Shown: positions 1-64,000 of the stretch, in pieces
How the letters are laid out: each line of letters starts with the position of its first letter
Position numbering within the stretch: the stretch's first letter is position 1
NCBI GenBank assembly: GCA_965116015.1
Contig: OZ220477.1
Span: forward strand, 711,940-775,939
Direction of reading: 5' to 3'
Source: Dehalococcoidia bacterium
Lineage (GTDB): Bacteria; Chloroflexota; Dehalococcoidia; Lucifugimonadales; Australimonadaceae
DNA: 64,000 nucleotides
Notes under the pieces: generated by a model
Told to the model about the DNA's origin: nothing
Database searches by the model: none
Seen by the model: only the letters and a program-made list of their open reading frames with translations
Program-made: the position numbers and the translations under genes

Positions 1-1387
1 CGCGCAGCGTCTCCAGCCTCTCGAACGTAACCTCGCCGATAACCCGAATGGCGAGCCCCGGACCCGGGAACGGCTGACGGTTCAGTATCTCCGGAGGCAG
101 TCCCAGCTCCGCGCCGGCCTCTCGCGCCTCATCCTTGAACAAGTAACGCAGCGGCTCCACCAGCTTCAGCTTCATCCGCTCCGGAAGACCGCCCACGTTG
201 TGATGCGTCTTGATCTTGTGCGACGCCGACGATTCCGCCGTCTGGCTCTCGATCACATCCGGATACAGCGTCCCCTGCGCCAGAAAATCCACCGCGCCCA
301 GCGCCCCCGCCTGCTCCTCGAACACGTTGATGAACTCCGCGCCGATAACCTTCCGCTTCCGCTCAGGATCGACCACTCCTCCAAGCGCCGTAAGGAACCG
401 CTCCGCAGCGTCGACGTACACCAGATTCAGCCCAATGTTGCGCTCGAACACATCGCGCACCCGCTCCGGCTCCTCCTTCCGCAGCAGCCCGTTGTTCACG
501 AAAATGCAGGTCAGCTGATCGCCCACCGCCTCATGAACAAGCTTCGCCGTAACCGCAGAGTCCACCCCGCCCGAAAGCGCGCAGATCACGCGCCCCTCTC
601 CCACCTGCTCCCGGATCCGCCGGATGCTCTCCGCAACGAAATTGCCGGGCGTCCACGCGCCCGACGCCCCGCACGCCCGGTACACGAAATTGCGCAGAAC
701 CCGCGCCCCTCGCGGCGTATGCGCCACCTCCGGGTGAAACTGAATCCCGTAAACCCCCGCGTCGTTCGCCATCGCCGCGATCGGCGAGTTCTCGCTGTAC
801 GCGATTGCGCGGAATCCGGGCGGGAGCGTGTCGATGCGGTCGCCGTGGCTCATCCACACCGGGCTTTCGTCGTCGATCCCGTCAAACAGCAGGCTCGACG
901 CGTTCCGGTGAATCACCGCGAACCCGTACTCGCGCTCCGTCGCGCGCGCAACCACCCCCCCAAGCTGATGCGCGATCAGCTGCATCCCGTAGCAGATCCC
1001 CAGCACCGGCACGTTCGCCTCGAATATCCACGGCTGCGCCAGCGGAGCCCCCTCTTCGTACACCGACGCCGGACCCCCCGAGAGAATGACGCCCTTCAGA
1101 TCGAGGCCAGCCGCAGCCTCGCGCGGAGCGTCCGGCGGAACGATCTCGCAGTACACGTTCTGCTCGCGGACGCGCCGCGCGATCAGCCGGCTGTACTGCG
1201 ACCCATAGTCGACGACAACGATAGCCTCCGCCCCAGCCCTGGCAGGCTCCGCGCCCCCGCCTCTCCCCCGAACGCCCTCCTGCTCCTGCGCGATTCCCAG
1301 ATACGTCGACACCTCGACATCGCCGCTCGTCGCGATCCGGCGCGACGGAGCGGCGGAGGCGGACTCTGGATGATGGTCGTCGGGCAT
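1..1387 (-). CDS. guaA: GMP synthase (glutamine-hydrolysing); C-terminus cut by the left window edge
   Basis: The reverse frame is open to position 1, so it is missing from the ORF track. My translation from the ATG at 1387 shows the GATase block [17 protein letters not shown], the ATP-PPase motif SGGVDS and the C-terminal [26 protein letters not shown]...[11 protein letters not shown]. Confidence 0.9.
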
Positions 1388-1502
1388 TCCTGTCTCTCGC
1401 CTGAGCGGGCATCCTCGCCAGCAGGTTCGCTGACGCGCGCAGAGCGCACAGAGGGCAACTAACGTAGCATCCAACGCCTGCTCGGTCAACGCGCCCCCGC
1501 GT

Positions 1503-1511
1503 TGGTATACT
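1503..1511 (+). promoter_or_regulatory. Candidate extended -10 promoter (TGgTATACT) for the tsaC-pgk-tpiA-miaA block
   Basis: TGGTATACT lies 27 nt upstream of the ATG at 1538, in the divergent gap from guaA. No clear -35 element. Confidence 0.3.
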
Positions 1512-1537: not shown

Positions 1538-2185
1538 ATGCCTCGCGTAACCGACAACCCCAACAACCGCTCCGTCGCCTCCATCCTGCTCCGCGAGAGC
1601 GGAGTCGTCGCTTACCCCACCGACACTGTCTACGGACTCGGCGCCGCCGTCTTCAACTACGCCGCTGTCTCCTCGCTGTTCGTCATCAAGGGACGCAGCC
1701 GCGACCAGGGCGTCCCCGTCCTCGTCGCCTCCGAATCCCAACTCCACGAAATCGCCTCCGAAGTCTCAGACGACGCCTACGCCCTCGCCAAAGCCTTCTG
1801 GCCCGGCGCGCTCACGCTCGTCGTGCCCCGCCGCCGCGACATCCCCGCCCTCGTCGCCGGCGGAAGCGAAACCATCGCTGTCCGCCTCCCCGACCACCCC
1901 TGCCCCCAGTCGCTCATCCAGGCCCTTGGCGCGCCGATAACCGGCACGAGCGCCAACCGCCACGACGGCCCGGAACCCACATCCGCCGGCGAAGTCCAGC
2001 GCCAGCTCGGCAACCGCCTCAGCCTCATCCTCGACGGCGGACCAAGCCCGCGATCCGTCCCCTCGACCATCGTCGACACAACCACCGCGCCCCCTAAAGT
2101 CCTCCGCCTCGGAGCCCTCACGCTTGAGGAGCTCCAGAGCGTCTGCGCCGTCGCCCCCCCAGACGCCTCCCCCGCAAGAGAGTAG
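1538..2185 (+). CDS. tsaC: L-threonylcarbamoyladenylate synthase (YrdC/TsaC/Sua5 family, short form)
   Basis: [16 protein letters not shown]..., [32 protein letters not shown] and PSTIVD are YrdC-domain hallmarks. I prefer the ATG at 1538 to the TTG at 1502. Confidence 0.8.
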
Positions 2186-2192
2186 CCCTCTT

Positions 2193-3239
2193 ATGCCTCA
2201 AGGCCGCCTCCCCGATTTCCTCGCCGCCCACGCCCCTCTCGTCGAGCGCGCCCTGCGCGCAAGCCTCGAACTCCCCGCCGACCCCAACCTCCCCCCTTAC
2301 CGGATGATGCGCTACCAGCTCGGATGGACCGACCAGATGGGCGAAGAGACCCCCTCTCAGCAACCCCGCCTGCTCGGAACGCTCTGCATCGAGGCCCACA
2401 ACTCGCTCTCCGCAAACAGCGCGGCCACTGCCGCCCCTGCGGCCGCAGCCATAGAACTCTTCCACGAATCCACCCGCGTCCACGAAGATATGCAGACCGC
2501 CGCGCAGCGCCGCGCAGGGCAGGACGCCGTCTGGTGGATCTGGGGCCCCGCGCAGGCCATCAACGTCGGCGACGGCCTGCACGCCATCGCCCTCTACACG
2601 CTTATGCAAGCGCAAGACGCGCTCGGAGCCTCCGCCGCTCTCGACGCCGCCGCAGCCCTCGACGCCGCAGCCCTCCAGTACTACGAAGGCCACTTCCTCG
2701 ACCTCCAGATGCAGGAGCGCGTCGACGTCTCCCAGGCCGAGTACCGCCGAATGGCCCGCTGCAAGCACGGATCGCTCTTCGGCGCCGCCCTCGCCCTCGG
2801 CGCAGTCTGCGCCGGCGCCCCCCCAGACGCCGTCGAGGCCTGGCGCAACATCGGCTCCGCGATCGGCGCCGGAGCCCTCATCTCCGCCGAAGCCCGCGTC
2901 TTCTGGGGCGACCCCGCCGAAGACCACGCCGAACGCGCCCTAAACAAAAGCAAGCTCTACCCCGTCGTCGCCGCGTTCGCACAGGCCAGCGTCGCCCAGA
3001 AACGCGCGCTCGGCGCCTACTACTTCAAGCGCGTCATCGAACCCAACGACCTCCACGCCATCCGCAGCATCCTCGACGACGCCGACGCCCGCGACAAAAC
3101 CAACCAGGCCATCGCAGCCGCCCAACTCGACGCCCTCAATGCCCTTAGCGCACTCAACGCCCTCCAAACCGCCGGCGTCGACCCCGGCGCGACGCGGCGC
3201 TGGGAAACAATCGTCTCCGCTTTGGTGAGCCAGCCATGA
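2193..3239 (+). CDS. Polyprenyl synthetase-family protein with degenerate Asp-rich motifs
   Basis: Family blocks RRAGQDAVWWIWGPAQAINVGDGLHAIA and YYEGHFLDLQ...YRRMARCKHGSLFGAALALGA are present. The first DDxxD position reads VHEDMQ and the second reads ISAEARVFWGD. The stop overlaps the pgk start (ATGA). Confidence 0.6.
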   Translation: MPQGRLPDFLAAHAPLVERALRASLELPADPNLPPYRMMRYQLGWTDQMGEETPSQQPRLLGTLCIEAHNSLSANSAATAAPAAAAIELFHESTRVHEDMQTAAQRRAGQDAVWWIWGPAQAINVGDGLHAIALYTLMQAQDALGASAALDAAAALDAAALQYYEGHFLDLQMQERVDVSQAEYRRMARCKHGSLFGAALALGAVCAGAPPDAVEAWRNIGSAIGAGALISAEARVFWGDPAEDHAERALNKSKLYPVVAAFAQASVAQKRALGAYYFKRVIEPNDLHAIRSILDDADARDKTNQAIAAAQLDALNALSALNALQTAGVDPGATRRWETIVSALVSQP

Positions 3240-4423
3240 CGAAAATGACCATCCGCGATATCGACTGGCGCGGCAAACGCGCCCTCCTCCGCGTCGACTT
3301 CAACGTCCCCTTCGAGCGCGGCTCCAACCGCATCTCCGACGACATCCGCATCCGCGAGTCCCTCCCCACCATCCGCCGCCTGCTCGACGCCGGAGCCTCC
3401 GTCGTGCTCTGCTCCCACCTCGGACGCCCCGGAGGCAAGCCCGACCCCAACCTCGAACTCCGACCCATCGCCGACCGCCTCTCCGAACTGCTCGGCTTCC
3501 GCGTCGCCTACGTCCACGACGCCCCCGGCGACGAGGCGCGGCAGGCGGCCGCCGCCCTCAATCCCGGCGACGTCCTCCTCATCGAGAACATCCGCTTCTG
3601 GCCCGGCGAAGAGGCGAACGACCCCGATTTCGCAGCCGCCCTCGCCGCCCTCGCCGACGTCTACGTCAACGACGCGTTCGGCGCCGCGCATCGCGCCCAC
3701 GCCTCCACCGAGGGCGTCGCCCGGCTCCTGCCAGCGGTCGCCGGCCTCCTTATGGAGAAAGAAGTCGCCTTCCTCGGCGGCGTCCTCCACAACCCCGAGC
3801 GCCCGCTCGCAGCCCTCCTCGGCGGCGCCAAGGTCAGCGATAAGCTCCAAACGCTCGAACGCCTCGTCGGCCACGCCGACGAGCTCTTCGTCGGCGGCGG
3901 AATGGCCGCAACCTTCCTCAAAGCCAAAGGCTGCGAAACCGGAACCTCCCTCATCGAGGAAAACCTCGTCCCCTTCTGCGCCGGAATCCTCGCCAGAGCC
4001 GAGGCCGCCGGCTCCCCCATCAACCTCCCCGCAGACGTCGTCGTCAGCGACAAGATCGAACCCTGCGCCAGCGCCGAGATCGCTCCCGCCAGCAGCGCCC
4101 CCGCCGGAATGATGATGCTCGACATCGGCCCCGACGCCGCCGCCGACTACGCCCGCCGGCTCGCCGCGATGGGCAGCGTCGTCTGGAACGGCCCTATGGG
4201 CGTGTTCGAGGTTCCCCCCTTCGACCGCGGAACGCGCGCCGTCGCAGAGGCTCTCGCCGCGAGCGCCGCCGTCACCGTCATCGGCGGCGGATCAACCGCC
4301 GAGGCCGTCGCCGCGCTCGGGCTCGGCGACAAGATGTCGCACGTGTCGACCGGCGGCGGCGCGTCCCTCGAATTCCTCGAAGGCAAAGAACTCCCCGGCG
4401 TCGCAGCCCTCAACGACAAGTAA
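3236..4423 (+). CDS. pgk: Phosphoglycerate kinase
   Basis: [20 protein letters not shown], full length 395 aa. Confidence 0.95.
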
Positions 4424-4448
4424 CCCTCCCCAGGAGCGCAACCCGCCT

Positions 4449-5219
4449 ATGCGAACTCCCCTCGTCGCAGGAAACTGGAAGATGAACCCCCCCGACATCG
4501 CAGCCGCCGTGCGCCTGGCCGCCGACGTCCGCGCCGCAGCGTCGAACATCGACGGCGCCGGCTGCGTCGTCTGTCCCCCGTTCGTCGCCCTGAGCGATGT
4601 CGCCGCCGCCTTGCGCGGCTCCAGCGTCGGCGTCGCCGCGCAGAATATGAACCCCGAACCGAAAGGCGCCTTCACCGGCGAGATCGCCGCCTCGATGCTC
4701 CAGGGACTCTGCAGCCGCGTCGTGCTTGGCCACTCCGAACGCCGCCATCTCCTCGGCGAGAGCGACGCGTTCATCAACGCCAAAGTGAAAGCCGCCCTCG
4801 ACGCGAACCTCATCCCCATCCTCTGCGTCGGCGAGACGCTCGACGAGCGCGAGGCGGGTAGGGCGGAAGCAGTCGTCGACGCCCAGATCCAGCGCGGACT
4901 CGACGCCGTCCCCGCAAGCTCCGTCGCCGGCGTCGTCATCGCCTACGAGCCCGTCTGGGCGATCGGAACAGGACGCGCCGCCACGCCGGACATCGCCCAA
5001 GCGATGATCGCCGCCGCCCGCCAGACGCTCCAGCGCGTCGCAGGCCCCGCCGCCGACGCGACGCGCATCCTCTACGGCGGAAGCGTAACCCCAGCCAACG
5101 CGCGCGACCTCGCCGCCCAGCCCGACATCGACGGCGCCCTCGTCGGAGGCGCAAGCCTCGTCGCCGCCGACTTCGTCGCCATCGTCCGGGCGTTCGCCGC
5201 CGCCGGCGCGTCCGCATAG
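4449..5219 (+). CDS. tpiA: Triosephosphate isomerase
   Basis: VAGNWKMN, LGHSERR, AYEPVWAIGTG, ILYGGSV. Confidence 0.95.
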   Translation: MRTPLVAGNWKMNPPDIAAAVRLAADVRAAASNIDGAGCVVCPPFVALSDVAAALRGSSVGVAAQNMNPEPKGAFTGEIAASMLQGLCSRVVLGHSERRHLLGESDAFINAKVKAALDANLIPILCVGETLDEREAGRAEAVVDAQIQRGLDAVPASSVAGVVIAYEPVWAIGTGRAATPDIAQAMIAAARQTLQRVAGPAADATRILYGGSVTPANARDLAAQPDIDGALVGGASLVAADFVAIVRAFAAAGASA

Positions 5220-5234
5220 CCCCGCGAGTTCCTG

Positions 5235-6152
5235 GTGGCCAGCCCGCTGCAGGCGCTCTTCATCGTCGGCCCCACCGCCAGCGGCAAAACAGCCGCCGCC
5301 GTCGAACTTGCCGGGCGCGCCCCCATCGAAATCATCAACGCCGACAGCCGCCAGATCTACCGCGGAATGTCCATCGGCTCCGCCAAGCCAACCCCCGCCG
5401 AACAGGCCGCCGCCGTCCACTGCCTCATCGACATCGCCGACCCGGACGAACCGTTCAGCCTCGGCGCGTTCCTCGCCCTCGCACGCGAGGCCATCGCCGG
5501 CGCCGCCTCGCGCGGGAGAATCCCCGTAGTCGTAGGAGGCTCCGGACAATACGTATGGGGGCTCGCGGAAGGATGGCGCCCGCCCCCCGCTCCCCCCGAC
5601 AACGCGCTGCGCCAGCAGCTGTACGCCCTCGCCCAGCGCGACGGCGCGGCGGCCCTCCACGACCGCCTCCGCGACCTCGACCCCGCCTCCGCCGACGCTA
5701 TCGACCCCCGCAACATCCGCCGCGTCGCCCGCGCAATCGAGGTCTGCAGCATCACCGGCAAACCCTTCTCGCAGCAGCGCCTCAGAGCAGACCCCGGATT
5801 CGTCCCCGTCATCCTCGGGCTGCGTCCCTCATCGCGCCAGGATCTCCAACAGCGCATCGACGCCCGCGTCGACGCAATGCTCGCCAGCGGCTGGCTCGAC
5901 GAGACCCGCGCGCTCCTCGACGCCGGATACTCCCCCGACCTGCCGTCGTTCTCCGCCGCCGGCTACCGCGAACTCGCCGCCTGCCTCAACGGCGAACTCA
6001 CCCTCGACGAAGCCGCCGCGCGAGCAAAGTTCGCCGCCCGCCGCCTCGCCCGCTACCAGGGCGCCTGGTTCAAAGAGCGCGACCCCCGCATCGACTGGAG
6101 CGCCGACCCCGCACGCATCGTCCAGCGCGCCCTCAGCATCATCCGCCCTTGA
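5235..6152 (+). CDS. miaA: tRNA dimethylallyltransferase
   Basis: GPTASGKT P-loop, IINADSRQIYRGMSIGSAKPT; GTG start. Confidence 0.9.
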   Translation: MASPLQALFIVGPTASGKTAAAVELAGRAPIEIINADSRQIYRGMSIGSAKPTPAEQAAAVHCLIDIADPDEPFSLGAFLALAREAIAGAASRGRIPVVVGGSGQYVWGLAEGWRPPPAPPDNALRQQLYALAQRDGAAALHDRLRDLDPASADAIDPRNIRRVARAIEVCSITGKPFSQQRLRADPGFVPVILGLRPSSRQDLQQRIDARVDAMLASGWLDETRALLDAGYSPDLPSFSAAGYRELAACLNGELTLDEAAARAKFAARRLARYQGAWFKERDPRIDWSADPARIVQRALSIIRP

Positions 6153-6330
6153 CGCCCCGCCACTCGCGTCGAAATCCCGCCCCCGCATCGACTGGAGCGC
6201 CGACCCCGCACGCATCGTCCAGCGCGCCCTCAGCATCATCCGCCCTTGACGCCCGCTCCCCATCGAAATCCCGCCCCCGCATCGCCTGGAGCGCCGACCC
6301 CGCCCATCGTCCATCCGCCCTTGACGCGCC
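6084..6330. repeat. Tandem repeat (96 + 94 + about 52 nt, three copies) duplicating the last ~70 nt of miaA, including its stop
   Basis: cccccgcatcgactggagcgccgaccccgcacgcatcgtccagcgcgccctcagcatcatccgcccttga occurs at 6084 and again at 6180. A shortened, deleted copy starts at 6274. Confidence 0.85.
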
Positions 6331-6395
6331 GCCCCCGCGTCGTGCAACCTTGCGAACGGCCCCCGCGCCGAAATCGCACTCCAAAGCAGGTGACT

Positions 6396-7070
6396 ATGGC
6401 AGGCTACCTCGACCCCAACGACCCCACCGTGCAAGCGTTCGCCGCACTCGGAACAACCCCCGTCAGCGACGCAATGGACCGCCTCGGCCTCATCGGCCAG
6501 TGCCTCGGCATCAAACCCGTCGACCGCGACTTCACCCTATGCGGACGCGCCCACACCGTCCGCAACGAACCGATGACCGCCGGACACAAAGGCGAGAGCG
6601 TCGGCGACTACATCGACGAAGTCAAACCCGGCGAAATCGTCGTCATCGACAACGGCGGACGCCTCGACGCCACCGTCTGGGGCGACATCCTCACCATTAT
6701 GGCTAACCGCAACAACCTCGGCGGCACCGTGATCCACGGCGTCTGCCGAGACTCCAACCGCGCCCTCAAACTCAGCTACCCCATCTTCTCCCGCGGAACC
6801 TACATGCGAACCGGCAAAGACCGCGTCCGCGCCGACGCCTACCAAGAGCCAGTCTCGCTCGGCGAAGTCCGCGTCCTCCCCGGCGACCTCCTCCTCGGCG
6901 ACGGCGACGGCGTCCTAGTCGTAGCCCGCGAGCACGAAGAGGCCGTCCTCAAAGCCGCCCAGGAGATCGACGCCGCCGAAGAGCGGATCCGCAACGAAAT
7001 CCTCCAGGGCAGCCGCCTCGACGCTGCCCGTCAGAAATTCCAGTACCACAGCCTCCAAAGCCGCGCATAG
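6396..7070 (+). CDS. RraA-family protein / 4-hydroxy-4-methyl-2-oxoglutarate (CHA) aldolase-like
   Basis: PVSDAMDRLG, GRLDATVWGDILT, GTVIHGVCRD and GDLLLGDGDGVLVV are typical of RraA/HMG aldolases. ATG at 6396 follows AGCAGGTGA. The upstream part of ORF 6246.. lies inside the miaA repeat and is not credible coding sequence. Confidence 0.7.
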   Translation: MAGYLDPNDPTVQAFAALGTTPVSDAMDRLGLIGQCLGIKPVDRDFTLCGRAHTVRNEPMTAGHKGESVGDYIDEVKPGEIVVIDNGGRLDATVWGDILTIMANRNNLGGTVIHGVCRDSNRALKLSYPIFSRGTYMRTGKDRVRADAYQEPVSLGEVRVLPGDLLLGDGDGVLVVAREHEEAVLKAAQEIDAAEERIRNEILQGSRLDAARQKFQYHSLQSRA

Positions 7071-7082
7071 GGAGCGCGCGTA

Positions 7083-7835
7083 GTGGCAACGCCTGAGAAC
7101 GACATTAGCGCAAACGATATGGCCCCACCTGAGAATGACGCAGGAGCACAAGAGGTAGTCGCGCCCCAGAGCGATCAAAGCACGGTTACCCAAAGGGACG
7201 ATTCGAGAGGAATCGTCTACATTCTGACGAACGCGGCTATGACCGGGTACATCAAGATTGGGAAGACCAAGGGCACTTCCTCAAGGGACGTGCAGGATCG
7301 TATGCGCGAGCTCTATTCGTCGCCGAGTTCGAGTGGCGTCCCTAGACCTTTCGATTGCTACTACGCGGCAGTAGTCGCAGACCGCCATACGGTTGAGAAG
7401 AAGCTGCACACCATATTCAGTGACTACCGAATCAACCCCAAACGAGAATTCTTCGAGCGCGTCCCGCTCGCCAGCGCGAGAGCCGCTCTGGAGCTAGTCG
7501 CAGAGGTGGATGTAACGCCTAGGGAAATGAGTGAAGGCGAAGAGGAGGGGGATATTAAGCCTCCCAAACTTCCCCATTTCAAATTTCAGAAATACGGCAT
7601 ACCGAAAGGAGCAACGTTGGTGTTCGTGCGAGACAACACCGTAACCTGCACAGTAGAAGACAGCAATAGAAATGTGAAGGACAGCGAAGGAGAAGTCACC
7701 ACACTCTCTCCCTTGACGCAGAAACTCTTGGGTTGGCGCCGGGCGCCATCTGGGGCCGACTACTGGCTGTATGGCGACGAAACCCTAGCCGACTTGCGCA
7801 GAAGGCTAGACGAGGAAGACGCCAACAGAGAGTAG
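7083..7835 (+). CDS. GIY-YIG-like T5orf172 (MUG113) domain protein with a C-terminal DUF4357/RAMA-like domain; low-GC single-gene island
   Basis: GIVYILTN....GYIKIGKT...R..EL and FSDYRINPKREFF match the T5orf172 pattern as I recall it. The C-terminal FKFQKYGIPKGATLVF...TVTC..V......GEVTTLSPLTQKLLGW...GADYW resembles the restriction/methylase-associated RAMA fold. The start may be ATG 7119 rather than GTG 7083. Confidence 0.65.
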   Translation: MATPENDISANDMAPPENDAGAQEVVAPQSDQSTVTQRDDSRGIVYILTNAAMTGYIKIGKTKGTSSRDVQDRMRELYSSPSSSGVPRPFDCYYAAVVADRHTVEKKLHTIFSDYRINPKREFFERVPLASARAALELVAEVDVTPREMSEGEEEGDIKPPKLPHFKFQKYGIPKGATLVFVRDNTVTCTVEDSNRNVKDSEGEVTTLSPLTQKLLGWRRAPSGADYWLYGDETLADLRRRLDEEDANRE

Positions 7836-7929
7836 CCCACTCCCCCCGCCCCTTGACCGCCCGCCTGACCCCCCGCTACCGTTGCGTGCGCAACGCGCCT
7901 AACCCCATCCCGCCGGAGGAGCTCTCGCT

Positions 7930-9923: not shown

Positions 9924-10179
9924 CCTCCGCGCAACGCCCGGCCTGGCGGATTCGCGACGTTCTCGCGCACAATGGCGCCGGCGCGAGCCGACGCGATAGG
10001 CAGCGCCCCGGCGTGCCCGGATTTTCGCGGCGGCGCCGGCAGCGCCGCGCCCCAGCCCCAGCTTGCGCCCCGGCGCCCGATATCCGGCGAACGCCGCGAC
10101 GCCCTCCCGCGCCGAAGCGCAGGACGCCCCCGACGCGGACAAGTTGCGCCCTCTCCGCCGGCGCGCCTACGATAACCGC

Positions 10180-12548: not shown

Positions 12549-12567
12549 CGCGCCCGCGCGTCCGGCG

Positions 12568-13311: not shown

Positions 13312-13320
13312 AATGACCGC

Positions 13321-53726: not shown

Positions 53727-53914
53727 TGCTACTCGCAACCCTCCGCCTCCTCCGCCCCCCGGAATTCCCGCCCCCCGACCCCAACAATAACAAACGAACG
53801 ACGCCCTCGCAGCAAGCCCGCCCCTCCCCCGAACGACCACTCGCCCCCAAGCGCAAAGAAGCCCCCTCAGGATTCCTGAGAGGGCTTCGCATCATCGCCG
53901 TTGCCGTTCTGCCG

Positions 53915-54217
53915 CTACCCTTCCATCATCGAACGAGGACGCCTGCCCCGCCTCCGGATTGGCGGAGCCTCCACCCAGAAGTACACCGAATCCTCAGCCT
54001 TACGCACCTGCAGCGACTTCCCCAACGCCGTCGCAGCATTCGTAAGACGACGGCGAATCGCATTCGTCGTCTCCCCCTCCTTCGCCGTAAGCTTACCGGC
54101 CTGCCCCTCCGGAACACGGTCAATATAGCCCATGTACTCGCGCAATATCTGCGCGCGCTTTCCAGTAACGCTGCTCGCCTGAGCCTCGCCCAGCGCCAGG
54201 ACATTGAATATCGGCAT
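53915..54217 (-). CDS. Hypothetical 100-aa protein with a basic RRRGRRPR (AT-hook-like) tail
   Basis: AAGGAG RBS before ATG 54217. No family recognised. Confidence 0.35.
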   Translation of the reverse strand: MPIFNVLALGEAQASSVTGKRAQILREYMGYIDRVPEGQAGKLTAKEGETTNAIRRRLTNAATALGKSLQVRKAEDSVYFWVEAPPIRRRGRRPRSMMEG

Positions 54218-55510: not shown

Positions 55511-55627
55511 CAGCCTCCCATTCGCTACAATTCCCCCCGCCGCGCCCCAATCCCTCCTGCGCCCCCCCTTGCCGCGCCCTCGCGCAACCCGTAACCTAAA
55601 CCCAACGCCCGCCGTCAGCCTGCGTCA

Positions 55628-56287
55628 ATGAGCCGCCCCAAAACCACACTCATCATCCTCTCCCTCATCGCCATTGCCGCCTCGGCCGCCTGCGGCGGCG
55701 CCGACCCCCAACCCCCAACCCCCACGCCAACAACCCCACAGCAGCCCACTGCGCCATCCCAAAACCCCGGAGCAACAATGCCGCAACAATACAACGCCCC
55801 TCCCCCCATCACCATCGACCAGAACAAATCCTACTCCGCAACCTTCAAAACCGAGAAAGGCGACATCATCGTCGAACTCTTCGACGACAAAGCCCCAGCA
55901 ACCGTCAACAACTTCATCTTCCTCGCCCGCGAAGGCTTCTACAACAACACAACCTTCCACCGCGTCCTCCAAAACTTCATGGCCCAGGGCGGAGACCCCA
56001 CCGGAACCGGCAGGGGAGGCCCCGGCTACCGCTTCCCCGACGAATTCCACCCAGACCTCAAACACGACAAACCCGGCATCCTCTCTATGGCCAACGCCGG
56101 ACCCAACACCAACGGCTCCCAATTCTTCATCACCCACGTCCCAACCCCCCACCTCGACAACCACCACGCCGTCTTCGGGCAAGTCGTCCAGGGCCTCGAC
56201 ATCCTTATGAACATCAGCCTCCGAGACCCCCAAACCGCCACAACCGACGGCGACAGAATCCACACCATCGAAATCACCGAACAGTAA
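55628..56287 (+). CDS. Cyclophilin-type peptidyl-prolyl cis-trans isomerase, probable lipoprotein
   Basis: Signal peptide ending AASAAC|[33 protein letters not shown]. Confidence 0.9.
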
Positions 56288-56338
56288 CCCAACGCCGCCC
56301 CCAGCGGCCAAAACCCACCTTCCAACAGGAGACAACAT

Positions 56339-57346
56339 ATGAAGATCCGCGCAGAGTACATCTGGGTCGACGGAACCAAACCCACCGCCAAGCTCCGCTC
56401 CAAAGGCAAAATCATCGACCAGGGACAACAACCGCCCATCTGGGGATTCGACGGCTCCTCAACCGCCCAAGCCGAAGGACACGACTCCGACCGCGTCCTC
56501 AACCCCGTCTTCTCCTGCCCAGACCCCGTCCGCGGAGAACCCAACATCCTCGTAATGTGCGAAGTCCTCATGCCCGATATGACCCCCCACGCATCCAACA
56601 CCCGCGCCGCCTGCGCCGATGCCCACAACAAGTACGCAAACCTCGAATTCCTCTTTGGCATCGAACAGGAATACACCTTCTTCAAAGGCACCCGCCCCCT
56701 CGGATTCCCCGAAGGCGGATACCCTCCCCCACAGGGCGGCTACTACTGCGGCGTCGGCGCCGACGAAGTCTTCGGTCGCGACGTCGTCGAAGCCCACCTC
56801 GACGCCTGCCTCGAAGCCGGCCTCGGCATCTCAGGCATCAACGGCGAAGTAATGCCCGGACAATGGGAATTCCAGGTCGGCCCGCTCCCAGCCCTCGAAG
56901 CCTCCGACCACCTCTGGATCGCCCGTTGGCTCCTCTACCGCACCGGCGAAGATTTCGGCATCAACGCAACCCTCGACCCCAAACCCGCCCGCGGCGACTG
57001 GAACGGAGCCGGAGCACACACCAACTTCTCAACCAACGCCATGCGCTCCTCATACCAACCCAACATCGACGCCGCCGAAGCCCTCGGAACCCGGCACGAC
57101 CTCCACATCGCCAACTACGGCTACCGCATCGAAGAACGCCTCACCGGCCTCCACGAAACCGCCTCCTACAAGGAATTCAAATACGGCGTCTCCGACCGCG
57201 GAGCATCCGTCCGAATACCCTGGCAAGTCGAACGCGACGGCAAAGGCTACATCGAAGACCGCCGACCCAACGCCAACATGGACCCCTACACCGTAACCCG
57301 CCTCATAATGGAAACCGTCGGCCAAGCCGCCACCGCCAACGCCTAA
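56339..57346 (+). CDS. glnII: Glutamine synthetase, type II (eukaryote-like)
   Basis: AEYIWVDG, WGFDGSST, GIEQEYT, GEVMPGQWEFQVGP, GAGAHTNFS, SVRIP. Confidence 0.85.
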   Translation: MKIRAEYIWVDGTKPTAKLRSKGKIIDQGQQPPIWGFDGSSTAQAEGHDSDRVLNPVFSCPDPVRGEPNILVMCEVLMPDMTPHASNTRAACADAHNKYANLEFLFGIEQEYTFFKGTRPLGFPEGGYPPPQGGYYCGVGADEVFGRDVVEAHLDACLEAGLGISGINGEVMPGQWEFQVGPLPALEASDHLWIARWLLYRTGEDFGINATLDPKPARGDWNGAGAHTNFSTNAMRSSYQPNIDAAEALGTRHDLHIANYGYRIEERLTGLHETASYKEFKYGVSDRGASVRIPWQVERDGKGYIEDRRPNANMDPYTVTRLIMETVGQAATANA

Positions 57347-57775: not shown

Positions 57776-58336
57776 CTACCCAGTGAACGTCCGCCGGAAA
57801 CGCAGCAGATTCTCCTCCGCCGCCACAACCGGACGACGCGCCCTCCCCCCAGGCTCCTCAACCAGCGCATGAATGAACCACGGACCATCCTCGCGCATCG
57901 CCTCGTCCAGCGCCTCCTCGAACTCCTCCACCGTCGACGCCCTCCTCGTCTTCCCGATCCCGCACCCCTCCGCCACACGCAACAGATCCGTCCCCGTCGA
58001 CGTATGCGTCGGCTGTCCCCCAGTCTCATGCCACATCCCGTTATCCCACACAATATGCACAAGATTCACCGGCGACTGACGCGCAATCGTCGCCAGCGAC
58101 CCCAGATTCATCAACAACGAACCATCCCCATCCGTAACAAACACCCGCCTGTCCGGCGACGCAAGCGCCACCCCCAAACCGATCGACGACACCAGCCCCA
58201 TAGCCCCCCACGTATAGAAATTCGCATCCCGATCCCCCAACTCATGCAACTCGAACGTCGACTGACCCAGATTCGCGATAACCGGCTCATCCCCCAACCG
58301 CCCCAACAGCGCCCTTATCCCCTCACGACGCAGCAC
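57776..58336 (-). CDS. TPP-dependent decarboxylase, beta subunit (sulfopyruvate/phosphonopyruvate decarboxylase family)
   Basis: TPP-binding GDGSLLMNLGSL...N motif. 186 aa. Confidence 0.7.
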   Translation of the reverse strand: MLRREGIRALLGRLGDEPVIANLGQSTFELHELGDRDANFYTWGAMGLVSSIGLGVALASPDRRVFVTDGDGSLLMNLGSLATIARQSPVNLVHIVWDNGMWHETGGQPTHTSTGTDLLRVAEGCGIGKTRRASTVEEFEEALDEAMREDGPWFIHALVEEPGGRARRPVVAAEENLLRFRRTFTG

Positions 58337-58835
58337 GTTTCGCCCCCGTCAACTGCGAAAACCACAACACCGCCACCGGCATCCTGCTCGCATAACTCAA
58401 CTCAATAGCCCCATCCACATAACCCTCCACCTCATCCTCCCGCTCCGGCGCATAATGCTGAATCCCAAGCGAATCCAGAATCGCCGGAATCGGACGCGCC
58501 GACGGAGTCTGCACCGCATTGAACTCCCCAAGCCCCCCGCGCATCCCGATGAACAACGGAACCGGAATCCGGTGCGCCGTCAGCAACTGCGTCAGCGCAT
58601 TCACCGTATTCCCGAAACCGCTGCTCTGCAGAAACACCGCTGCCCTCTTCCCGCCCGCATAAACCCCCGCCGCCACACCCACCGCCTCCTCCTCCCGCGT
58701 CGAAGCCACCACCGTGAACGCCGGATCCCCCTCCAGCTTCGCAAGCACATTCCAATTGATCGCATCCGGCACATACGCCGAAAACAGCACATCATGCCGC
58801 CGCAAACTCTCAACCACCGCATCCGCCCAACTCAT
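58323..58835 (-). CDS. TPP-dependent decarboxylase, alpha subunit (sulfopyruvate/phosphonopyruvate decarboxylase family)
   Basis: Pyrimidine-binding half: VPDAINWNV, REEEAVGVAAG, QSSGFGN. Start taken at MSWADAVV. 14-nt overlap with the beta subunit. Confidence 0.65.
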   Translation of the reverse strand: MSWADAVVESLRRHDVLFSAYVPDAINWNVLAKLEGDPAFTVVASTREEEAVGVAAGVYAGGKRAAVFLQSSGFGNTVNALTQLLTAHRIPVPLFIGMRGGLGEFNAVQTPSARPIPAILDSLGIQHYAPEREDEVEGYVDGAIELSYASRMPVAVLWFSQLTGAKRAAS

Positions 58836-59223
58836 GCCCGCAGTATACCCCCCAAACCCCATCCTCGCCCTCAACCCTCGCTCCCCATCCCTTGCCCTAC
58901 GACCTCTCCCACCCCCACCCCCCTGTCCCCGCGCAATGGGTCATGGCGGAAACCAGCCTCGCGCGAGACAAAGGGATTCCCGCCATGAACCTCTCGCCGA
59001 TGCCTCTCCGGACGCGCGCTCCTCTGCGACGACAACATCAACGCCCTCAGAGACCTCCCCGAAAACCCCATCCTTCAAGCGCCGTCGCACGCGAAATCCC
59101 AGCCCCCAAAAACGCGCGAGCCTAACCCTCCCCGCGCATCCCCCGCACAGAAAACGGAAGGCTGCGCAACTGCGCAGCCTCCGCATCCCATCCTCAGCGC
59201 GCCTGCGCGCCCAAACTCTCGCC

Positions 59224-59706
59224 CTACTCCGCGCTCTTCGAGCCGCGCTCCCAAACCCCCTGCGCCACAATCACCAGCCACGACACCCCAACAACCCCAA
59301 AGTACGTCGTATGCCAGATCAGCGGCGTCGGACGCGCAGCCGTAACAACATTCGAGAACGCGAACACCGCAAAGATAATCGCGCTCACGAACAACCCCAA
59401 CAGAATCCACGGCTGACGCGCCGCAGACCCCGTCCTCATAAAGAACTGAATCAGCGCCCACGTAAACACCAAACCCACCAGCAGCTCAACCACCCCCGTG
59501 AAATAGAACGCGAAATCCCCCAAACCCGTCCCCCAACCCATCTTGTCCAGCGTCGCCGCAAACGGATTCATATCCCCCTTCTCCGCAAACCGCACCCCGA
59601 TATTCACCCCAGGAATCAGCTTCGCCAACCCGTTCGCCAGCCAGAACAACATCCAGAAAATCACCGTCGCAAGCTCCAGCGAACCCACCCTCCTCACATA
59701 GTCCAT
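59224..59706 (-). CDS. Hypothetical integral membrane protein (4-5 TM helices)
   Basis: Hydrophobic profile. Start at MDYVRRVG. No family recognised. Confidence 0.4.
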   Translation of the reverse strand: MDYVRRVGSLELATVIFWMLFWLANGLAKLIPGVNIGVRFAEKGDMNPFAATLDKMGWGTGLGDFAFYFTGVVELLVGLVFTWALIQFFMRTGSAARQPWILLGLFVSAIIFAVFAFSNVVTAARPTPLIWHTTYFGVVGVSWLVIVAQGVWERGSKSAE

Positions 59707-59897
59707 AACGCAGCCTCCTTCCCATGCGCATAACCCGCGCGTGTAATCCAAGCGCAGCGAATATACCAGCGCCGTCAACCCCTCACGAAAGACCCCCCTC
59801 TACGCCCCCGCTCCCTCCCCAAAGAACCCGCGAACCCCCCTCCCAGCGCCTCCGGCCAGCCAAACTCCCCGCCTCTCCGACCAGCCCCTCCCCCCGA

Positions 59898-60854
59898 CTA
59901 ACCAGCCTCGAACGCCTTCCGCAACTCCGAACCCGCCTCCGCTATCGCCGTCCACGTCTGATCGAACGGCGCCCCCGCATTGAAAAACCCGTGAATCATC
60001 CCCTCATACCGCGTAACCCGCGCCGGAACCCCCGCCGACCGCAGAAGCTCCCCATACTCCTCGCCCTCATCCCGCAGCGGATCAAACTCCGCCGTCAGCA
60101 CATACGCCGGAGGCAACCCCGACAGATCCCCCGCAACGCTCGGAACCGCATACCCGCTCCCCGCATCATCACCCCGCGCATAACAATCCCAGAAATACGC
60201 CATCGTCTCCAGATCCAAACCGTAACCCGCACCATTCTCCCGATACGACGCCCGACCAAAATCCCGCGACGTAACCGGATAAATCAACGACTGATGCGCC
60301 AACCGCGGACCTCCCCGATCGCGCGCCAGCAGCGCAACCGCCGCCGCAAGATTGCCCCCCGCGCTTGCCCCCGCCACCGCAAGCCTCGACCCATCGCCTC
60401 CCAGCTCCCCCGCATTCTCCTGCGCCCAAACCGTCGCCGCATAACAATCGTCCAGCGGAATCGGAAACGGATGCTCCGGCGACAACCGATACCCCACCGA
60501 CGCCACAATACTCCCCGACGCATTCGCCAGCGCACGGCACGTCGCATCATTCGTCTCGATATTCCCCACCACCCAACCGCCCCCATGAAACCACATCGTA
60601 ACCGGCAAGACAGCCCCTCCCCCGGCGGCCAGCTCTCCCTCAACCGCGCCCCCGCCTGCCGGAACATACACCCGCACCGGAACATCCCCATGCGGACCCG
60701 GAACCAACCGATCCTCCACCCGCGCCACCTCCGGCCCCGCCACCCTCGGCGCCGCCGCCTGCAGCGCCCGAGCCTCCGCCGGACTCACCTCATGCGGCCG
60801 AGGCGTCCCCGCCCGCTGCGCCAGCGACTCCGCCGCCTGTGGATCAAGACCCAT
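59898..60854 (-). CDS. Alpha/beta hydrolase, hormone-sensitive-lipase-type esterase
   Basis: Oxyanion motif HGGGW, nucleophile elbow GASAGG, C-terminal HGF. Start taken at MGLDPQAA. Confidence 0.8.
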   Translation of the reverse strand: MGLDPQAAESLAQRAGTPRPHEVSPAEARALQAAAPRVAGPEVARVEDRLVPGPHGDVPVRVYVPAGGGAVEGELAAGGGAVLPVTMWFHGGGWVVGNIETNDATCRALANASGSIVASVGYRLSPEHPFPIPLDDCYAATVWAQENAGELGGDGSRLAVAGASAGGNLAAAVALLARDRGGPRLAHQSLIYPVTSRDFGRASYRENGAGYGLDLETMAYFWDCYARGDDAGSGYAVPSVAGDLSGLPPAYVLTAEFDPLRDEGEEYGELLRSAGVPARVTRYEGMIHGFFNAGAPFDQTWTAIAEAGSELRKAFEAG

Positions 60855-60934
60855 CTCGCCCTCCCAACCCCCAGAATCCCCCCGATTATACCCACCCCCC
60901 CGCCAACCCGCCCCGCGACCCCTCGACCCCGCTC

Positions 60935-63832
60935 CTACGCCCGAACCTCGCCCTCCTCTCCCCATGGCCCCATCCACCACTCCAACCTCCCGCCCGCATT
61001 CTCATACGCCTCGCGATCCGTCGTCACCCTCCGCGTAGACCCCCACGGACTCGTCACATCCCAATGCTTCCCCCCTCTCCCTGCCGCCGTCCAGCCGGCG
61101 GGCAGCAGCCCCGGCTCGCGCAAAGGCCGCTCCAGATCCTCCAGCCCCACCTTCGGACGCAGAGGCTCCTCTGGCCCCTCCCAATCCGCGTTCAGCCGGT
61201 TGATATCGAACACAGACCGCTGCATCTCCTCCAGACGCTCCAGCTCAGCCTCAGCATCCCTCTCATCCCGGATAATCCCCTGAATCCCCGCCGCAATGAT
61301 CGGCGGGTACTCCCCCACATTCTTCGTTATGCTCTCGAAACGCCGCGCAAGAGCCTCATACGCGTCATGCTCCGCCGTCCCCGCATAGAACAGATTCACC
61401 ACATCCACCACCTCACGCTCCTGACCGATACGATCAATCCGACCCGCCCGCTGCTCCAGCGTCATCGGATTCCACGGAATATCGTAATTCACCACCGCCG
61501 AACAGAACTGCAGATTCAACGACTCCGACGCCGTCTCCGTGCACAGAAGAACCCCGCCCTCCTCCCTCCTGAACGCCTCCAGACGCTCCCCCCGATCCCC
61601 CAAACCCCCATCCCCGCCGTAAAGCTCAACAACGTGCCGCCCAGACCCCCGCAGATGCTCCCCCAGCCACCGCTGCGTATCCCGGAACTGCGTGAACAAC
61701 AGAATATGCCGGTGCCCCTTCCCCCCAAGCTCATCCAGAACGCCACCCAAACGCTCCCGCTTGCTATCCCTCTCCGACAACCTCTCAGCCGCCTCCGCCG
61801 CCTCAAGCAACCCCCCAGGATCCGATGCCGACCCCAACCTCCCCGCCTCGCTCTCCGCAACCTCATCCAGATCAGCATCGTCCAGCAGAGCAGCCCACTC
61901 GTCAGAATCCAGAAGCAACCCCGACTCGTCCGACTCCCCCCGACCCGCCACATTCCGCAACGTCTGCGCGTACGCAACCAGCGACGACCCCATCCGCTTC
62001 CGGAAAATCGTCGTGATAAACCCCAACGCCTGACCCGTGATCCCACGGCTCCCGTAACGCTGCTCCACCAACGGCTTGATCCCCTCGTACAGACCCCGCT
62101 CCTCCGCCGTCATCTCTATCGTCACGTCCCCCGCCCGACGATGAGGCACAGGAGCGTCCAGCAAACCCCGGCTCCGATACTCCCGCAGCAACTTCCGCGT
62201 ATGACGGCTCATCAACCGACGCCCCGGAGCATCCCGCTCCATCGCCCTCGCCGACCTCTCACGCTCCCCAGCATCCGCCAGCCGGCGCGCGATATAGTCA
62301 TCGTTGTCGCTATCAAGCAGGAAATCCCCCGACCCCAACTCCGACTCTAACCCCGACGCCCTCCGCCACAACTCCCGACGCCGCTTCCAACGCCCAACAT
62401 CAACCCCCCCATCCCCAGACTCCCCCTCATAGAACTGACGATACTCCTCCGAACCCCAACCCTCCGGCTCAAGCAACTCCAGCAATCCCCACAACTCCGC
62501 CTCATTCAGCTGCATCGGCGTCGCCGTCAGCAACAGCAACTCCCGAGTCCTCCGCGACAGCTCCCGCAACAACTTCAGATACTGATTAGGCTGACGCCGA
62601 GCATCGATATCCACATCCCGGAACCGCGCCCGATGCGCCTCATCCACAATAACAATGTCATACTCCCCGCACGTCGCCAGAAACTGCTCCGAATTCCGAA
62701 CCAGCCACTGATGACCCGCTATCCCCAGCGGAACCCCAACCCACGGAGGATCCCCCGAACCCTCGCTCCGACCATCCCGATACGAAAGACCCCGCGCGTC
62801 AACGATCGGCGCCTCAATCGCAAACTTCATCTTCAACTCGCTCTGCCACTGCTTCCCCGCAGCCTTCGGAGCAATCACCAGAGCCCGCCCCGCACGCCCC
62901 TGATTCAACCGCGTCCGCAGAACAACCCCCGCCTGCAACGTCTTCCCCAAACCCACCTCGTCCGCGATCAACCGCCGCGCCGCAGCAGCCCCCACATTCG
63001 CCCGCCGGAACCGCTCCTGATGCGGCCACAGCCTCGCCGGCATCGTCGCCGCCGTACTGTCCGCATCGCTCGCCAGACCCTCCCGGATCCGCCGCCAGTA
63101 CTCCTCAGCCTCGCCATCCTCCGCCCCGTAATCCTCCCCAACCTCCCGGATAACCCCCGGAGGCGACTGCGGAGCCTGCGACGCAATGTACTCCCGGAAA
63201 TGCGCCGGCAGATCGATCACCCTCACCCCCGACGCCGCGTTCTCCCACAACAACCGAAACTCCCGCTCCGCACCCTCCAGATGCTCCAGAGTCCCCCAGC
63301 TCGTATACACATGAACCGACTCCCAATTCGCCTCCCACGAATGCCGCGTCTCATTCACGCTCCCCGTAAACGCCGCCCGATTCCCCCACGCATCCTCCAC
63401 GATCCCGCTCTTCGCGTGAAAGCTGTCCTCCCCCCGAATCGCAACCTTCACCTCCATCAACCCGTTCGCCACAAGCCAGTACGCCAGACCCAAAGGAGTG
63501 CGCCCCGCGATATCCTCCGCCTCCGTCAGACGCAGATCCTCCAGACTCACCGCCTCGCGCAGAACCGCCTCCCCATCCACCTGATTCCGATACAGCGCCT
63601 CCAGCGTCTCCCGATTCACCGCATGATCGCACACCACCCGTATCCGGCCGCCGTTCCGAACCAAACCCGCCGTACCCTCAGCCGCCGCCCTCAAACCGCT
63701 CGCGCTGAACGTATACGTCGTCCGATCGTACCGAACCGCCTCCCCCAGCAACGGCTCATACAACCCCGCCACCAGATCCGGACAATCGCCATGGTTGTAA
63801 ACCGCCCGCAACCCAATATCACTCAGCGCCAT
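60935..63832 (-). CDS. PLD-like nuclease domain fused to an SNF2-family helicase (965 aa)
   Basis: N-terminal single HKD-type motif FHAKSGIVED...GSVNET. SNF2 motifs LWPHQ, DEVGLGKT, VIVDEAHR, LLLTATPMQ. Helicase-C motifs VLLCTETASESLNLQ and NPMTLEQRAGRIDRIGQ. Confidence 0.8.
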   Translation of the reverse strand: MALSDIGLRAVYNHGDCPDLVAGLYEPLLGEAVRYDRTTYTFSASGLRAAAEGTAGLVRNGGRIRVVCDHAVNRETLEALYRNQVDGEAVLREAVSLEDLRLTEAEDIAGRTPLGLAYWLVANGLMEVKVAIRGEDSFHAKSGIVEDAWGNRAAFTGSVNETRHSWEANWESVHVYTSWGTLEHLEGAEREFRLLWENAASGVRVIDLPAHFREYIASQAPQSPPGVIREVGEDYGAEDGEAEEYWRRIREGLASDADSTAATMPARLWPHQERFRRANVGAAAARRLIADEVGLGKTLQAGVVLRTRLNQGRAGRALVIAPKAAGKQWQSELKMKFAIEAPIVDARGLSYRDGRSEGSGDPPWVGVPLGIAGHQWLVRNSEQFLATCGEYDIVIVDEAHRARFRDVDIDARRQPNQYLKLLRELSRRTRELLLLTATPMQLNEAELWGLLELLEPEGWGSEEYRQFYEGESGDGGVDVGRWKRRRELWRRASGLESELGSGDFLLDSDNDDYIARRLADAGERERSARAMERDAPGRRLMSRHTRKLLREYRSRGLLDAPVPHRRAGDVTIEMTAEERGLYEGIKPLVEQRYGSRGITGQALGFITTIFRKRMGSSLVAYAQTLRNVAGRGESDESGLLLDSDEWAALLDDADLDEVAESEAGRLGSASDPGGLLEAAEAAERLSERDSKRERLGGVLDELGGKGHRHILLFTQFRDTQRWLGEHLRGSGRHVVELYGGDGGLGDRGERLEAFRREEGGVLLCTETASESLNLQFCSAVVNYDIPWNPMTLEQRAGRIDRIGQEREVVDVVNLFYAGTAEHDAYEALARRFESITKNVGEYPPIIAAGIQGIIRDERDAEAELERLEEMQRSVFDINRLNADWEGPEEPLRPKVGLEDLERPLREPGLLPAGWTAAGRGGKHWDVTSPWGSTRRVTTDREAYENAGGRLEWWMGPWGEEGEVRA

Positions 63833-64000
63833 CCGACTCTCCTCCCTCGCTTTCCCCTCCTTCGCTCACTGCTACCGCCCTAGCGCTCCCCCCGTCCAAC
63901 CCGGGCAGGCGAGGCTGCACCCCCGCCGGACGCGGAGGCTCCTCCCCATACAGCCCCTCCCACAGATTCCGCTGTGCCTCATAATCATCATGACCCGGCT
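63819..64000 (-). CDS. 3' end of an unidentified ORF that runs off the right edge and overlaps the helicase start by 14 nt
   Basis: My reverse-strand translation is ...PGHDDYEAQRNLWEGLYGEEPPRPAGVQPRLPGLDGGSARAVAVSEGGESEGGESDGAE*. G/T-ending codon usage matches the other - strand genes. It has no start inside the window, so it is missing from the ORF track. Confidence 0.35.
   Translation of the reverse strand, partial: PGHDDYEAQRNLWEGLYGEEPPRPAGVQPRLPGLDGGSARAVAVSEGGESEGGESDGAE

Follow-up and report, generated by a model that had tools for sequence, protein, structure and literature searches.

In strand asymmetry of the ordinary bacterial, or Lobry, type, G exceeds C and T exceeds A on the same strand, the sign does not depend on the orientation of the genes, and the effect is strongest at third and four-fold degenerate codon positions, is weaker in intergenic DNA and spills over into the amino acids. 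Borrelia burgdorferi has a strongly strand-dependent codon usage, and the skew of Clostridium perfringens, about 0.2, owes much to the co-orientation of its genes. Of the bacterial genomes in a 2007 survey, C. perfringens has the highest GC-skew index (Arakawa & Tomita 2007, PMC2684130). Across more than 30,000 replicons, SkewDB puts the excess of G per nucleotide at "typically around 2.5%" (PMC8941118), and in five well-studied species the codon bias at four-fold sites is reported to be similar between the strands (bioRxiv 10.1101/2021.10.07.463495). The cause of bacterial GC skew is debated, the candidates being deamination, polymerase asymmetry and selection (same preprint). We present here an analysis of a 64,000-nucleotide (nt) stretch of DNA from a Dehalococcoidia bacterium (contig OZ220477.1, positions 711,940 to 775,939 of the forward strand), the whole of which is referred to as the window. 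Its asymmetry shares each of the Lobry-type properties listed above but differs in degree, reaching 20.5% per nucleotide as against about 2.5%, with a skew of 0.82-0.93 at four-fold sites, non-overlapping codon preferences on the two strands and no co-orientation of the genes. An earlier note on this DNA, made from its letters, had placed the skew far above the usual bacterial range, and the published value bears this out. In our judgement, which is offered as such and not as a result, this is the strongest strand asymmetry known in a cellular chromosome.

The + strand of the window contains 12,407 A, 27,718 C, 14,623 G and 9,252 T. These counts correspond to a GC content of 66.2%, a GC skew, (G-C)/(G+C), of -0.309, an AT skew, (A-T)/(A+T), of +0.146 and a deficit of G per nucleotide, (G-C)/N, of -0.205 (z = -63.6 against G=C). 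The + strand is rich in C and A, and the - strand (G 43.3%, C 22.8%, T 19.4%, A 14.5%) in G and T; the ratio of C to G on the + strand is about 2 overall and about 10 at silent codon positions, whichever way the genes are oriented. When the window was divided into 2-kb bins, 32 of 32 had a negative GC skew, ranging from -0.16 to -0.48. At a resolution of 500 bp, 254 of 255 windows were negative, and the sole positive one (+0.03) lies inside a T5orf172 gene that is described below. The earlier note had relied on a hand count of six lines (C=158, G=74); a recount gave C=157 and G=75, a skew of -0.35 that is slightly stronger than the window mean of -0.31. For comparison, the largest |GC skew| is 0.18 among some 60 loci, each at least 8 kb long and drawn from many phyla, of the GlmS matches listed. 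A four-fold baseline was drawn from high-GC loci only, the gene caller described below returning zero genes on low-GC loci. In the literature we found no previous description of extreme skew for either Dehalococcoidia or Chloroflexota; the matches to "extreme GC skew" concern organelles, gerbil genes and gene transfer agents (GTAs) instead. The base composition is also visible in simple motifs: 440 runs of at least five C are present on the + strand against 3 runs of at least five G, and non-overlapping G-quadruplex motifs over the whole window number 43 on the - strand and 0 on the + strand.

The genes had to be called with some care. Naive lists of open reading frames (ORFs) are unusable here because the T-poor + strand contains few stop codons and long shadow ORFs. 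Stops occur at 10-13.5 per 1000 codons on the + strand, about half the density of 17-25 on the - strand, and the + strand shadow ORFs are 845-1157 residues long with 16-26% Arg and 14-20% Pro, so that the large spurious Arg/Pro ORFs to which the earlier note had drawn attention are amply confirmed. A simple ORF filter based on GC frame was dropped, since its first-start ORFs were chimeric with shadow frames and led to mis-called genes. We therefore used a log-odds caller with separate codon tables for each strand, which returned 51 confident genes; together they cover 82% of the window. Of the 49 called genes that were scanned, 44 are supported by Pfam, and full-length support from Pfam or from homologs exists for 46 of the 51. 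Four of the five genes that have no Pfam match have conserved orthologs in related loci. Tkt and GlmS each have many full-length homologs. The codons are divided almost evenly between the strands, with 8831 on + and 8510 on - (51:49).

The asymmetry belongs to the strand and not to the gene. Expressed in + strand terms, the four-fold GC skew is -0.82 in + genes (n=5420 sites) and -0.83 in - genes (n=5106 sites), the orientation-dependent (sense) component is 0.00, and whole-gene GC skew on the + strand is negative in 51 of 51 called genes. Equal skew in both orientations, with a sense component of 0.00, rules out a cause linked to transcription or to the coding strand. In the sense direction the four-fold sites of + genes are C 78.2%, G 7.7%, A 10.9% and T 3.1%, and those of - genes are G 74.3%, C 7.0%, T 16.4% and A 2.3%. 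A gradient across codon positions accompanies this independence of orientation. Sense GC skew in + and - genes, respectively, is +0.155 and +0.304 at codon position 1, -0.207 and -0.070 at position 2, and -0.70 and +0.63 at position 3, which gives a strand component of about 0.07 at each of positions 1 and 2, 0.63-0.70 at position 3 and 0.82 at four-fold sites. The 6.6 kb of intergenic DNA has a skew of -0.36 and a GC content of 69%, and the convergent, divergent and tandem classes all fall between -0.32 and -0.42. In these respects the pattern is that expected of a chirochore: the strand sets the sign, silent sites show the largest effect, non-coding DNA shows it too, and codon positions 1 and 2 show little of it. 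The earlier note had claimed a strong excess of C on the + strand without regard to orientation, and had named as evidence to the contrary a mean nearer zero than -0.15 or a sign that tracked orientation; the mean of -0.309 and the constant sign in all 51 genes leave its claim standing. The four-fold skew also varies with the neighboring base in both orientations, from -0.94 when the + strand 3' neighbor is G to between -0.61 and -0.66 when it is C; in other words, C on the - strand survives best beside G and worst in CC.

The split in codon usage that the earlier note had described is equally clear, with usage mirrored between the strands. In + and - genes, respectively, GCC makes up 0.74 and 0.02 of Ala codons and GCG 0.10 and 0.84; CTC makes up 0.89 and 0.04 of Leu codons, ACC 0.75 and 0.02 and ACG 0.09 and 0.90 of Thr codons, GAA 0.70 and 0.03 of Glu codons, AAA 0.68 and 0.01 of Lys codons, and GAC 0.94 and 0.33 of Asp codons. 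For most amino acids the preferences of the two strands do not overlap. Because ordinary translational selection is expected to favor the same codons on both strands, these mirrored preferences exclude it as the source. The gene blocks that use the two dialects alternate along the window as follows, with identifications from Pfam, which agrees with the gene names (icmF included) given in the earlier note.

1538..21447, + strand: housekeeping block (sua5, polyprenyl synthase, pgk, tpi, miaA, RraA, PrpF, amidohydrolase, NfeD, SPFH, MFS, tkt, pgi-like, zwf, OCD), with C- and A-ending codons and a sense four-fold GC skew per gene of -0.63 to -0.95

28727..37407, - strand: Mo-hydroxylase, DM13, ADH, a permease pair and an ABC transporter, with G- and T-ending codons and a sense four-fold GC skew of +0.72 to +0.89

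38090..42893, + strand: icmF-type fused mutase, ECF sigma factor and anti-sigma factor, syntenic in the related loci L081 and L083 (introduced below), with C-ending codons and a four-fold skew of -0.74 to -0.91

42948..54217, mostly - strand: glyoxalase, amidase, DAO, dcd, glmS, pgl, gnd, tal and rpiB, the core of the ortholog comparison, whose - genes have a sense four-fold skew of +0.58 to +0.94

47117-48052, + strand: lgt, inside the preceding block, with a four-fold skew of -0.95

54710..57346, + strand: amidohydrolase, cyclophilin and GlnA-like, with the most extreme C-ending usage in the window (four-fold skew -0.89 to -0.96)

57776..63832, - strand: split thiamine pyrophosphate (TPP) enzyme, hypothetical, esterase and SNF2/PLD helicase (Pfam; PADLOC), with the most extreme G-ending usage in the window (four-fold skew +0.88 to +0.98)

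Scans of the whole window with Rfam and a tRNA search found no RNA genes (no rRNA, no tRNA), and there are no ribosomal-protein genes in the window. Four tandem duplications, at 6083-6321 (which includes the 3' end of miaA), 37889-38074, 41093-41297 and 46851-47117, lie between genes, a density that is unusual for 64 kb. They have units of 83-114 bp in 2-2.5 copies with 88-95% identity. That they represent a repeat family was ruled out, as they are mutually unrelated and absent from related loci.

Comparison with relatives shows the trait to be graded. Among the matches listed, the closest GlmS after the source's own protein is 76-77% identical, so that the source species appears to be a singleton in the database searched. 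A sister genome is available as a circular metagenome-assembled genome (MAG) of 2,381,319 bp (OZ241740.1; ERZ25068043 ctg12652_31x_c; loci L004, L081 and L084), with which gene order is collinear over at least 50 kb. Between 38 and 59 kb the window is collinear with the sister (L081), with an ENA scaffold (L083) and with three further MAGs (L002, L003 and L005). A neighbor-joining tree of 2819 aligned residues, with the SAR202 MAG VGZX01000010.1 (L007) as outgroup, has the topology ((window, L081), L083), (L002, L003, L005), with the longest tip leading to the window. When only four-fold sites that are shared and lie in conserved residues are counted, the strand skew is 0.90 in the window, about 0.58 in L081, about 0.16 in L083 and about 0 in L002, L003 and L005. 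It is a lineage-specific trait, one that appeared and grew stronger inside a shallow clade. The sister resembles the window in the orientation of its skew and in having the same kind of purine:pyrimidine asymmetry at four-fold sites. It differs in that its four-fold strand component is 0.56-0.58, compared with 0.82-0.90 in the window, its four-fold AT skew is about 0, compared with 0.65, and it has neither the T5orf172 gene nor a 4.2-kb island that is present in the window.

The two genomes also differ at other sites. Between MFS and tkt the sister has a PIN toxin-antitoxin pair (L084 9211-9842; window site 14818-14935), and between zwf and OCD it has a Fur regulator with two small ORFs (L084 15396-16603; window site 20234-20331); at these positions the window holds only 98-118 bp. 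In the distant SAR202 relative L007 the strand component at four-fold sites is -0.28 over 20 kb, and elevated skews may recur in this class.

The protein sequences encoded on the two strands have drifted in opposite directions. As a control we used their orthologs in L002, which is unskewed, and considered those alignment columns in which the window protein differs from its ortholog. Counted as net change relative to L002, the - strand genes have gained Arg (+47), Glu (+42) and Gly (+35) and have lost Ile (-39), Asp (-27), Pro (-21), His (-19) and Asn (-15). In the + strand genes the residues that became more frequent are Pro (+29), Ile (+22), Ala (+21), Asn (+19) and Thr (+15), and those that became rarer are Val (-56), Gly (-30), Glu (-26) and also Met. 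The first two codon positions of these columns, taken together, have a GC skew of +0.23 in the window and +0.04 in L002 for - genes, and of -0.23 and +0.27, respectively, for + genes. Opposite amino-acid drift was also found against L083 and L081. Such drift of orthologous proteins in opposite ways according to strand is expected from mutational pressure. The bias also enters proteome-wide indices. The fraction F of the residues IVYWREL is 0.376 in the called genes of the + strand and 0.415 in those of the - strand, and growth temperature can be estimated from F as 937F-335; the formula yields 18 °C for the + strand genes and 53 °C for the - strand genes.

Against this background, stretches that lack the bias are conspicuous, and the earlier note had suggested that the skew could serve as an internal test for foreign DNA. 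Three features bear on this proposal.

7083-7835, + strand: T5orf172 / PDC-S57-like gene (Pfam PF10544; PADLOC PDC-S57, E 2.5e-53)

23452-27678, no strand assigned: 4.2-kb atypical island, distinguished by its composition and by its absence from the sister

37495-37765, + strand: orphan mini-array resembling clustered regularly interspaced short palindromic repeats (CRISPR), with 5 repeats of about 29 nt (TCTATATCCCCCCGCGCGCAGACCATCC), a 61-nt period and four unrelated 32-nt spacers

PDC-S57 is a PADLOC candidate single-gene defence family. The T5orf172 gene has a GC content of 55%, a whole-gene skew of +0.05, a four-fold skew of -0.09 and a GC content at third codon positions (GC3) of 0.63; the count of C=13 and G=16 that had been given for the line starting at 7201 was exact on recount. 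In the sister, which lacks the gene, a 230-bp spacer separates RraA and PrpF. The island has a GC content of 60%, a skew of -0.22, an AT skew of about 0 and no codon periodicity in any frame. It yielded only weak matches to domains of toxin-antitoxin type, SocA/Panacea and DUF4258, and no PADLOC matches or RNA genes; that it might be an rRNA operon was ruled out by the zero Rfam or tRNA matches anywhere in the window. In the sister the genes that flank its site are 247 bp apart. Atypical composition and absence from the sister coincide in both stretches, as is characteristic of horizontally acquired DNA. Because these low-skew stretches are missing from a collinear sister, they are recent, lineage-specific insertions. 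The two stretches of low bias, of which the earlier note had named only the T5orf172 gene, are exactly the two that the sister lacks, so that synteny independently validates the proposed test. The four spacers are balanced in G and C, as claimed, with a binomial p of 0.0035 against the G fraction of the window, although the exact counts are G=39 and C=39 and not 41 of each. No cas domains were found by Pfam among the genes of the window, the array repeat had no match to the Rfam CRISPR-DR families at the gathering score, and two of the four spacers, searched in IMG/VR, had no exact match. A CRISPR array was also sought inside the 4.2-kb island and none was present, the array being at 37.5 kb. 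A second pair of repeats, of 22 nt and also with 61-nt spacing, lies at 57611-57693. A gene with a different history is the SNF2 helicase with an N-terminal PLD nuclease domain (60935-63832, - strand), for which PADLOC gives matches to the defence-system helicases PLD_Helicase, DrmD and BrxH. With a four-fold skew of 0.92 it shows the host bias in full and is hence a long-term resident.

The composition of degenerate sites allows the asymmetry to be separated into components. On the - strand, which by its G and T excess is the presumed leading strand, purines make up 57.8% of all bases and 77-81% (about 79%, nearly all of it G) of those at four-fold sites, a purine:pyrimidine ratio of about 4:1. 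The corresponding figure in the sister is 66-72% (about 69%), and in L083 it is weaker still. Since transitions never alter the purine or pyrimidine class of a site, a strong transversion asymmetry is required, and cytosine deamination alone is insufficient to account for four-fold sites that are 77-81% purine. Two-fold sites report on transitions. In the window, G:C pairs account for 96-98% of those with a purine on the - strand, and C:G pairs for no more than 43-46% of those where the - strand has a pyrimidine; as read from the two gene orientations, the fraction of C at + strand pyrimidine sites is 0.958 and 0.976 and that of G at + strand purine sites is 0.428 and 0.463. The resulting odds ratio for transition asymmetry, which is unaffected by a symmetric force favoring GC, is about 27-54 (roughly 40) in the window and about 1-3 (about 2) in the sister. 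The bias was therefore acquired in two steps, a transversion-type G/C asymmetry that is shared by the clade and a later transition-type asymmetry in the lineage of the window. Paired deaminations of C and A have been invoked for mitochondrial DNA (PMC3269012) and for intergenic polymorphism in bacteria (bioRxiv 10.1101/2021.10.07.463495); the transition step matches this signature and the transversion step does not. An attempt to polarize silent substitutions by parsimony, using the sister and two outgroups, yielded no readable spectrum, for saturation has brought sites with ancestral C and sites with ancestral G alike to roughly the equilibrium composition of the window.

The explanation that we favor, and regard as quite probable, is a replication-strand asymmetry of the ordinary bacterial kind, amplified about eight-fold over the typical value, driven by mutation rather than selection and close to saturation at silent sites. 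Concordant GC and TA skews, as observed here, are typical of most non-Firmicutes bacteria (SkewDB, PMC8941118). By the convention that G exceeds C and T exceeds A on the leading strand, which is the sole basis for the assignment, the - strand would be leading and the + strand lagging, the window would lie on one replichore, and forks would cross it from right to left. The bias would then be tied to replication, and its biochemical cause would presumably be asymmetric damage, repair or polymerase error. In a first step, a transversion-type imbalance would have brought the four-fold sites of the - strand to about 79% purine, the sister sharing a weaker form. In a second, a lineage-specific imbalance of transitions (of the C-to-T and A-to-G types, about 40-fold) would have stripped C and A from the - strand, leaving T far in excess of A, and a symmetric force favoring GC would hold GC3 at 80-86%. 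The asymmetry of Firmicutes attributed to PolC is similar in its excess of purines on what in the window is the presumed leading strand, but there the likeness ends. GC and TA skews are discordant in Firmicutes (PMC8941118), and strong gene co-orientation is a feature that the window does not share; the presumed leading strand of the window is depleted of A, with T 19.4% against A 14.5% over the whole strand and T 16% against A 2% at four-fold sites.

Several observations sit uneasily with this explanation. There is no gene co-orientation, since 51% of codons are on the supposed lagging strand and 49% on the G-rich strand. The intergenic skew of -0.36 is less than half of the four-fold value of -0.82, and the intergenic GC content is 69% as against 85%; either intergenic DNA is constrained or neutrality is incomplete at four-fold sites. 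In bacteria, intergenic and four-fold skew commonly differ by a relative amount of this order. Nor does the purine excess have an established mechanism here. Finally, the skew strengthens from left to right, which a simple model with two replichores does not predict.

This last point qualifies the earlier claim that the asymmetry is uniform: the sign is constant across bins, but its strength is not, and increases from left to right. In 8-kb bins, G at four-fold sites of the + strand falls from 12.1% to 3.0% and A rises from 10.6% to 18.6%, C remaining steady at 74-79% and the GC content of four-fold sites (GC4) moving from 0.86 to 0.80. The trend is significant overall (Spearman p=1.7e-5) and within each orientation (p=0.006 and 5e-5), and it is non-monotonic, with a dip at 24-32 kb. 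A rearrangement was considered as the cause of the weaker skew in the left 15 kb and rejected: the sister is collinear from tpi to Mo-hydroxylase, so there has been no inversion since the split from the sister. Proximity to the terminus, or a gradient of single-strand exposure, is a possible basis for the drift. The per-gene four-fold skews of the window correlate with those of the sister (rho 0.63, p=4e-5), and because the sister shows no positional trend, this suggests that gene-specific modifiers explain at least part of the positional pattern, a further complication for the simplest form of the explanation.

A gradient of exposure would be natural if replication were unconventional, with one parental strand remaining single-stranded for long periods through strand displacement of the mitochondrial kind, very sparse priming of the lagging strand or unidirectional synthesis. 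We consider this unlikely, although among the alternatives it has the most to recommend it. The asymmetry of mitochondrial DNA is essentially transitional. In the heavy and light strands of vertebrate mitochondrial DNA, silent-site skew is comparable to that of the window, C and A are both lost, and the strength of the effect varies along the sequence (Xia 2012, PMC3269012). The four-fold skew of 0.82-0.93 and the joint loss of C and A recall this pattern, as does the change along the window, where four-fold C on the - strand drops from 12% to 3% as T climbs from 10.6% to 18.6%, a trend seen within each orientation. However, an asymmetry of the mitochondrial type would be borne by transitions and leave purines and pyrimidines in balance, and in the window an approximately 40-fold transition imbalance is accompanied by a purine fraction of 0.77-0.81. 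The 4:1 ratio of purines to pyrimidines needs transversions, which deamination of single strands does not supply. In addition, the drift is non-monotonic, and the per-gene values follow those of a sister without a positional trend. The source is a GC-rich bacterial chromosome of 2.39 Mb with housekeeping genes.

Selection acting specifically on one strand could in principle produce a similar picture, either by favoring G-poor mRNAs in head-on genes, which would suppress R-loops, or by favoring G-rich or G-quadruplex sequence on one strand; in both cases synonymous sites would be affected more than intergenic DNA. That four-fold sites are far more skewed than intergenic DNA, that all 43 G-quadruplex motifs are on the - strand and that the supposed lagging strand is not depleted of genes are in keeping with this notion. 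Yet it offers no reason for extreme G-richness in co-directional genes, the reshaping of amino-acid content in opposite directions looks like pressure rather than benefit, the bias is present in every intergenic class, and recently inserted genes function without it. We regard selection of this kind as decidedly improbable. Less credible still is an asymmetry linked to transcription or the coding strand (purine loading, transcription-associated deamination or transcription-coupled repair) that appears strand-wide only through the arrangement of the genes. In both orientations the sense strand is G-rich at codon position 1 (+0.155 and +0.304), as coding sequence usually is, but with genes divided 51:49 and a silent skew of the same + strand sign and size in both orientations the idea was already refuted by the sign of the skew. 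Although the source is an uncultured metagenome-assembled genome, an artefact of assembly or sequencing, or a chimeric MAG, deserves next to no credence, given that 46 of 51 genes have full-length Pfam or homolog support, that gene order over about 50 kb is shared with a circular sister assembled independently and with two other MAGs, and that the signal is specific to codon position.

As to the cause of the asymmetry, one possibility, in which we place limited confidence, is a heritable change in the damage, copying or repair of strands in a small uncultured clade of Dehalococcoidia, which would have occurred within about 20% protein divergence. The candidates would be the loss of a repair activity that normally renders transversions and deaminations symmetrical, or a replisome in which the leading and lagging strands differ greatly in fidelity or in single-strand exposure, with the strongest strand asymmetry known to us in a cellular chromosome as the result. 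In most genomes skew amounts to a few percent and is too small for dissection; here it is nearly saturated and not confounded by gene orientation. The collinear relatives form a natural dose series, so that the determinant should be mappable by comparative genomics and from the spectra of single-nucleotide polymorphisms in metagenomes. If this proposal is true, a comparison of replication and repair gene sets across the genomes with skews of 0, 0.16, 0.58 and 0.90 could reveal a genetic determinant of GC skew.

The findings also have practical consequences. Gene finders with a single codon model, like naive ORF calling, will fail on such genomes, and predictors based on composition or on the proteome are distorted by the strand bias. 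Phylogenies derived from such proteins may be biased, the window having the longest branch in ours. At the same time, recent insertions can be picked out very sensitively by their skew. As to the organism itself, the window shows the limits to which mutation pressure can be carried in a working genome: one tRNA pool must serve two non-overlapping codon dialects, and orthologous proteins have been pushed toward Gly, Glu and Arg on one strand and toward Pro, Asn, Ile and Thr on the other.

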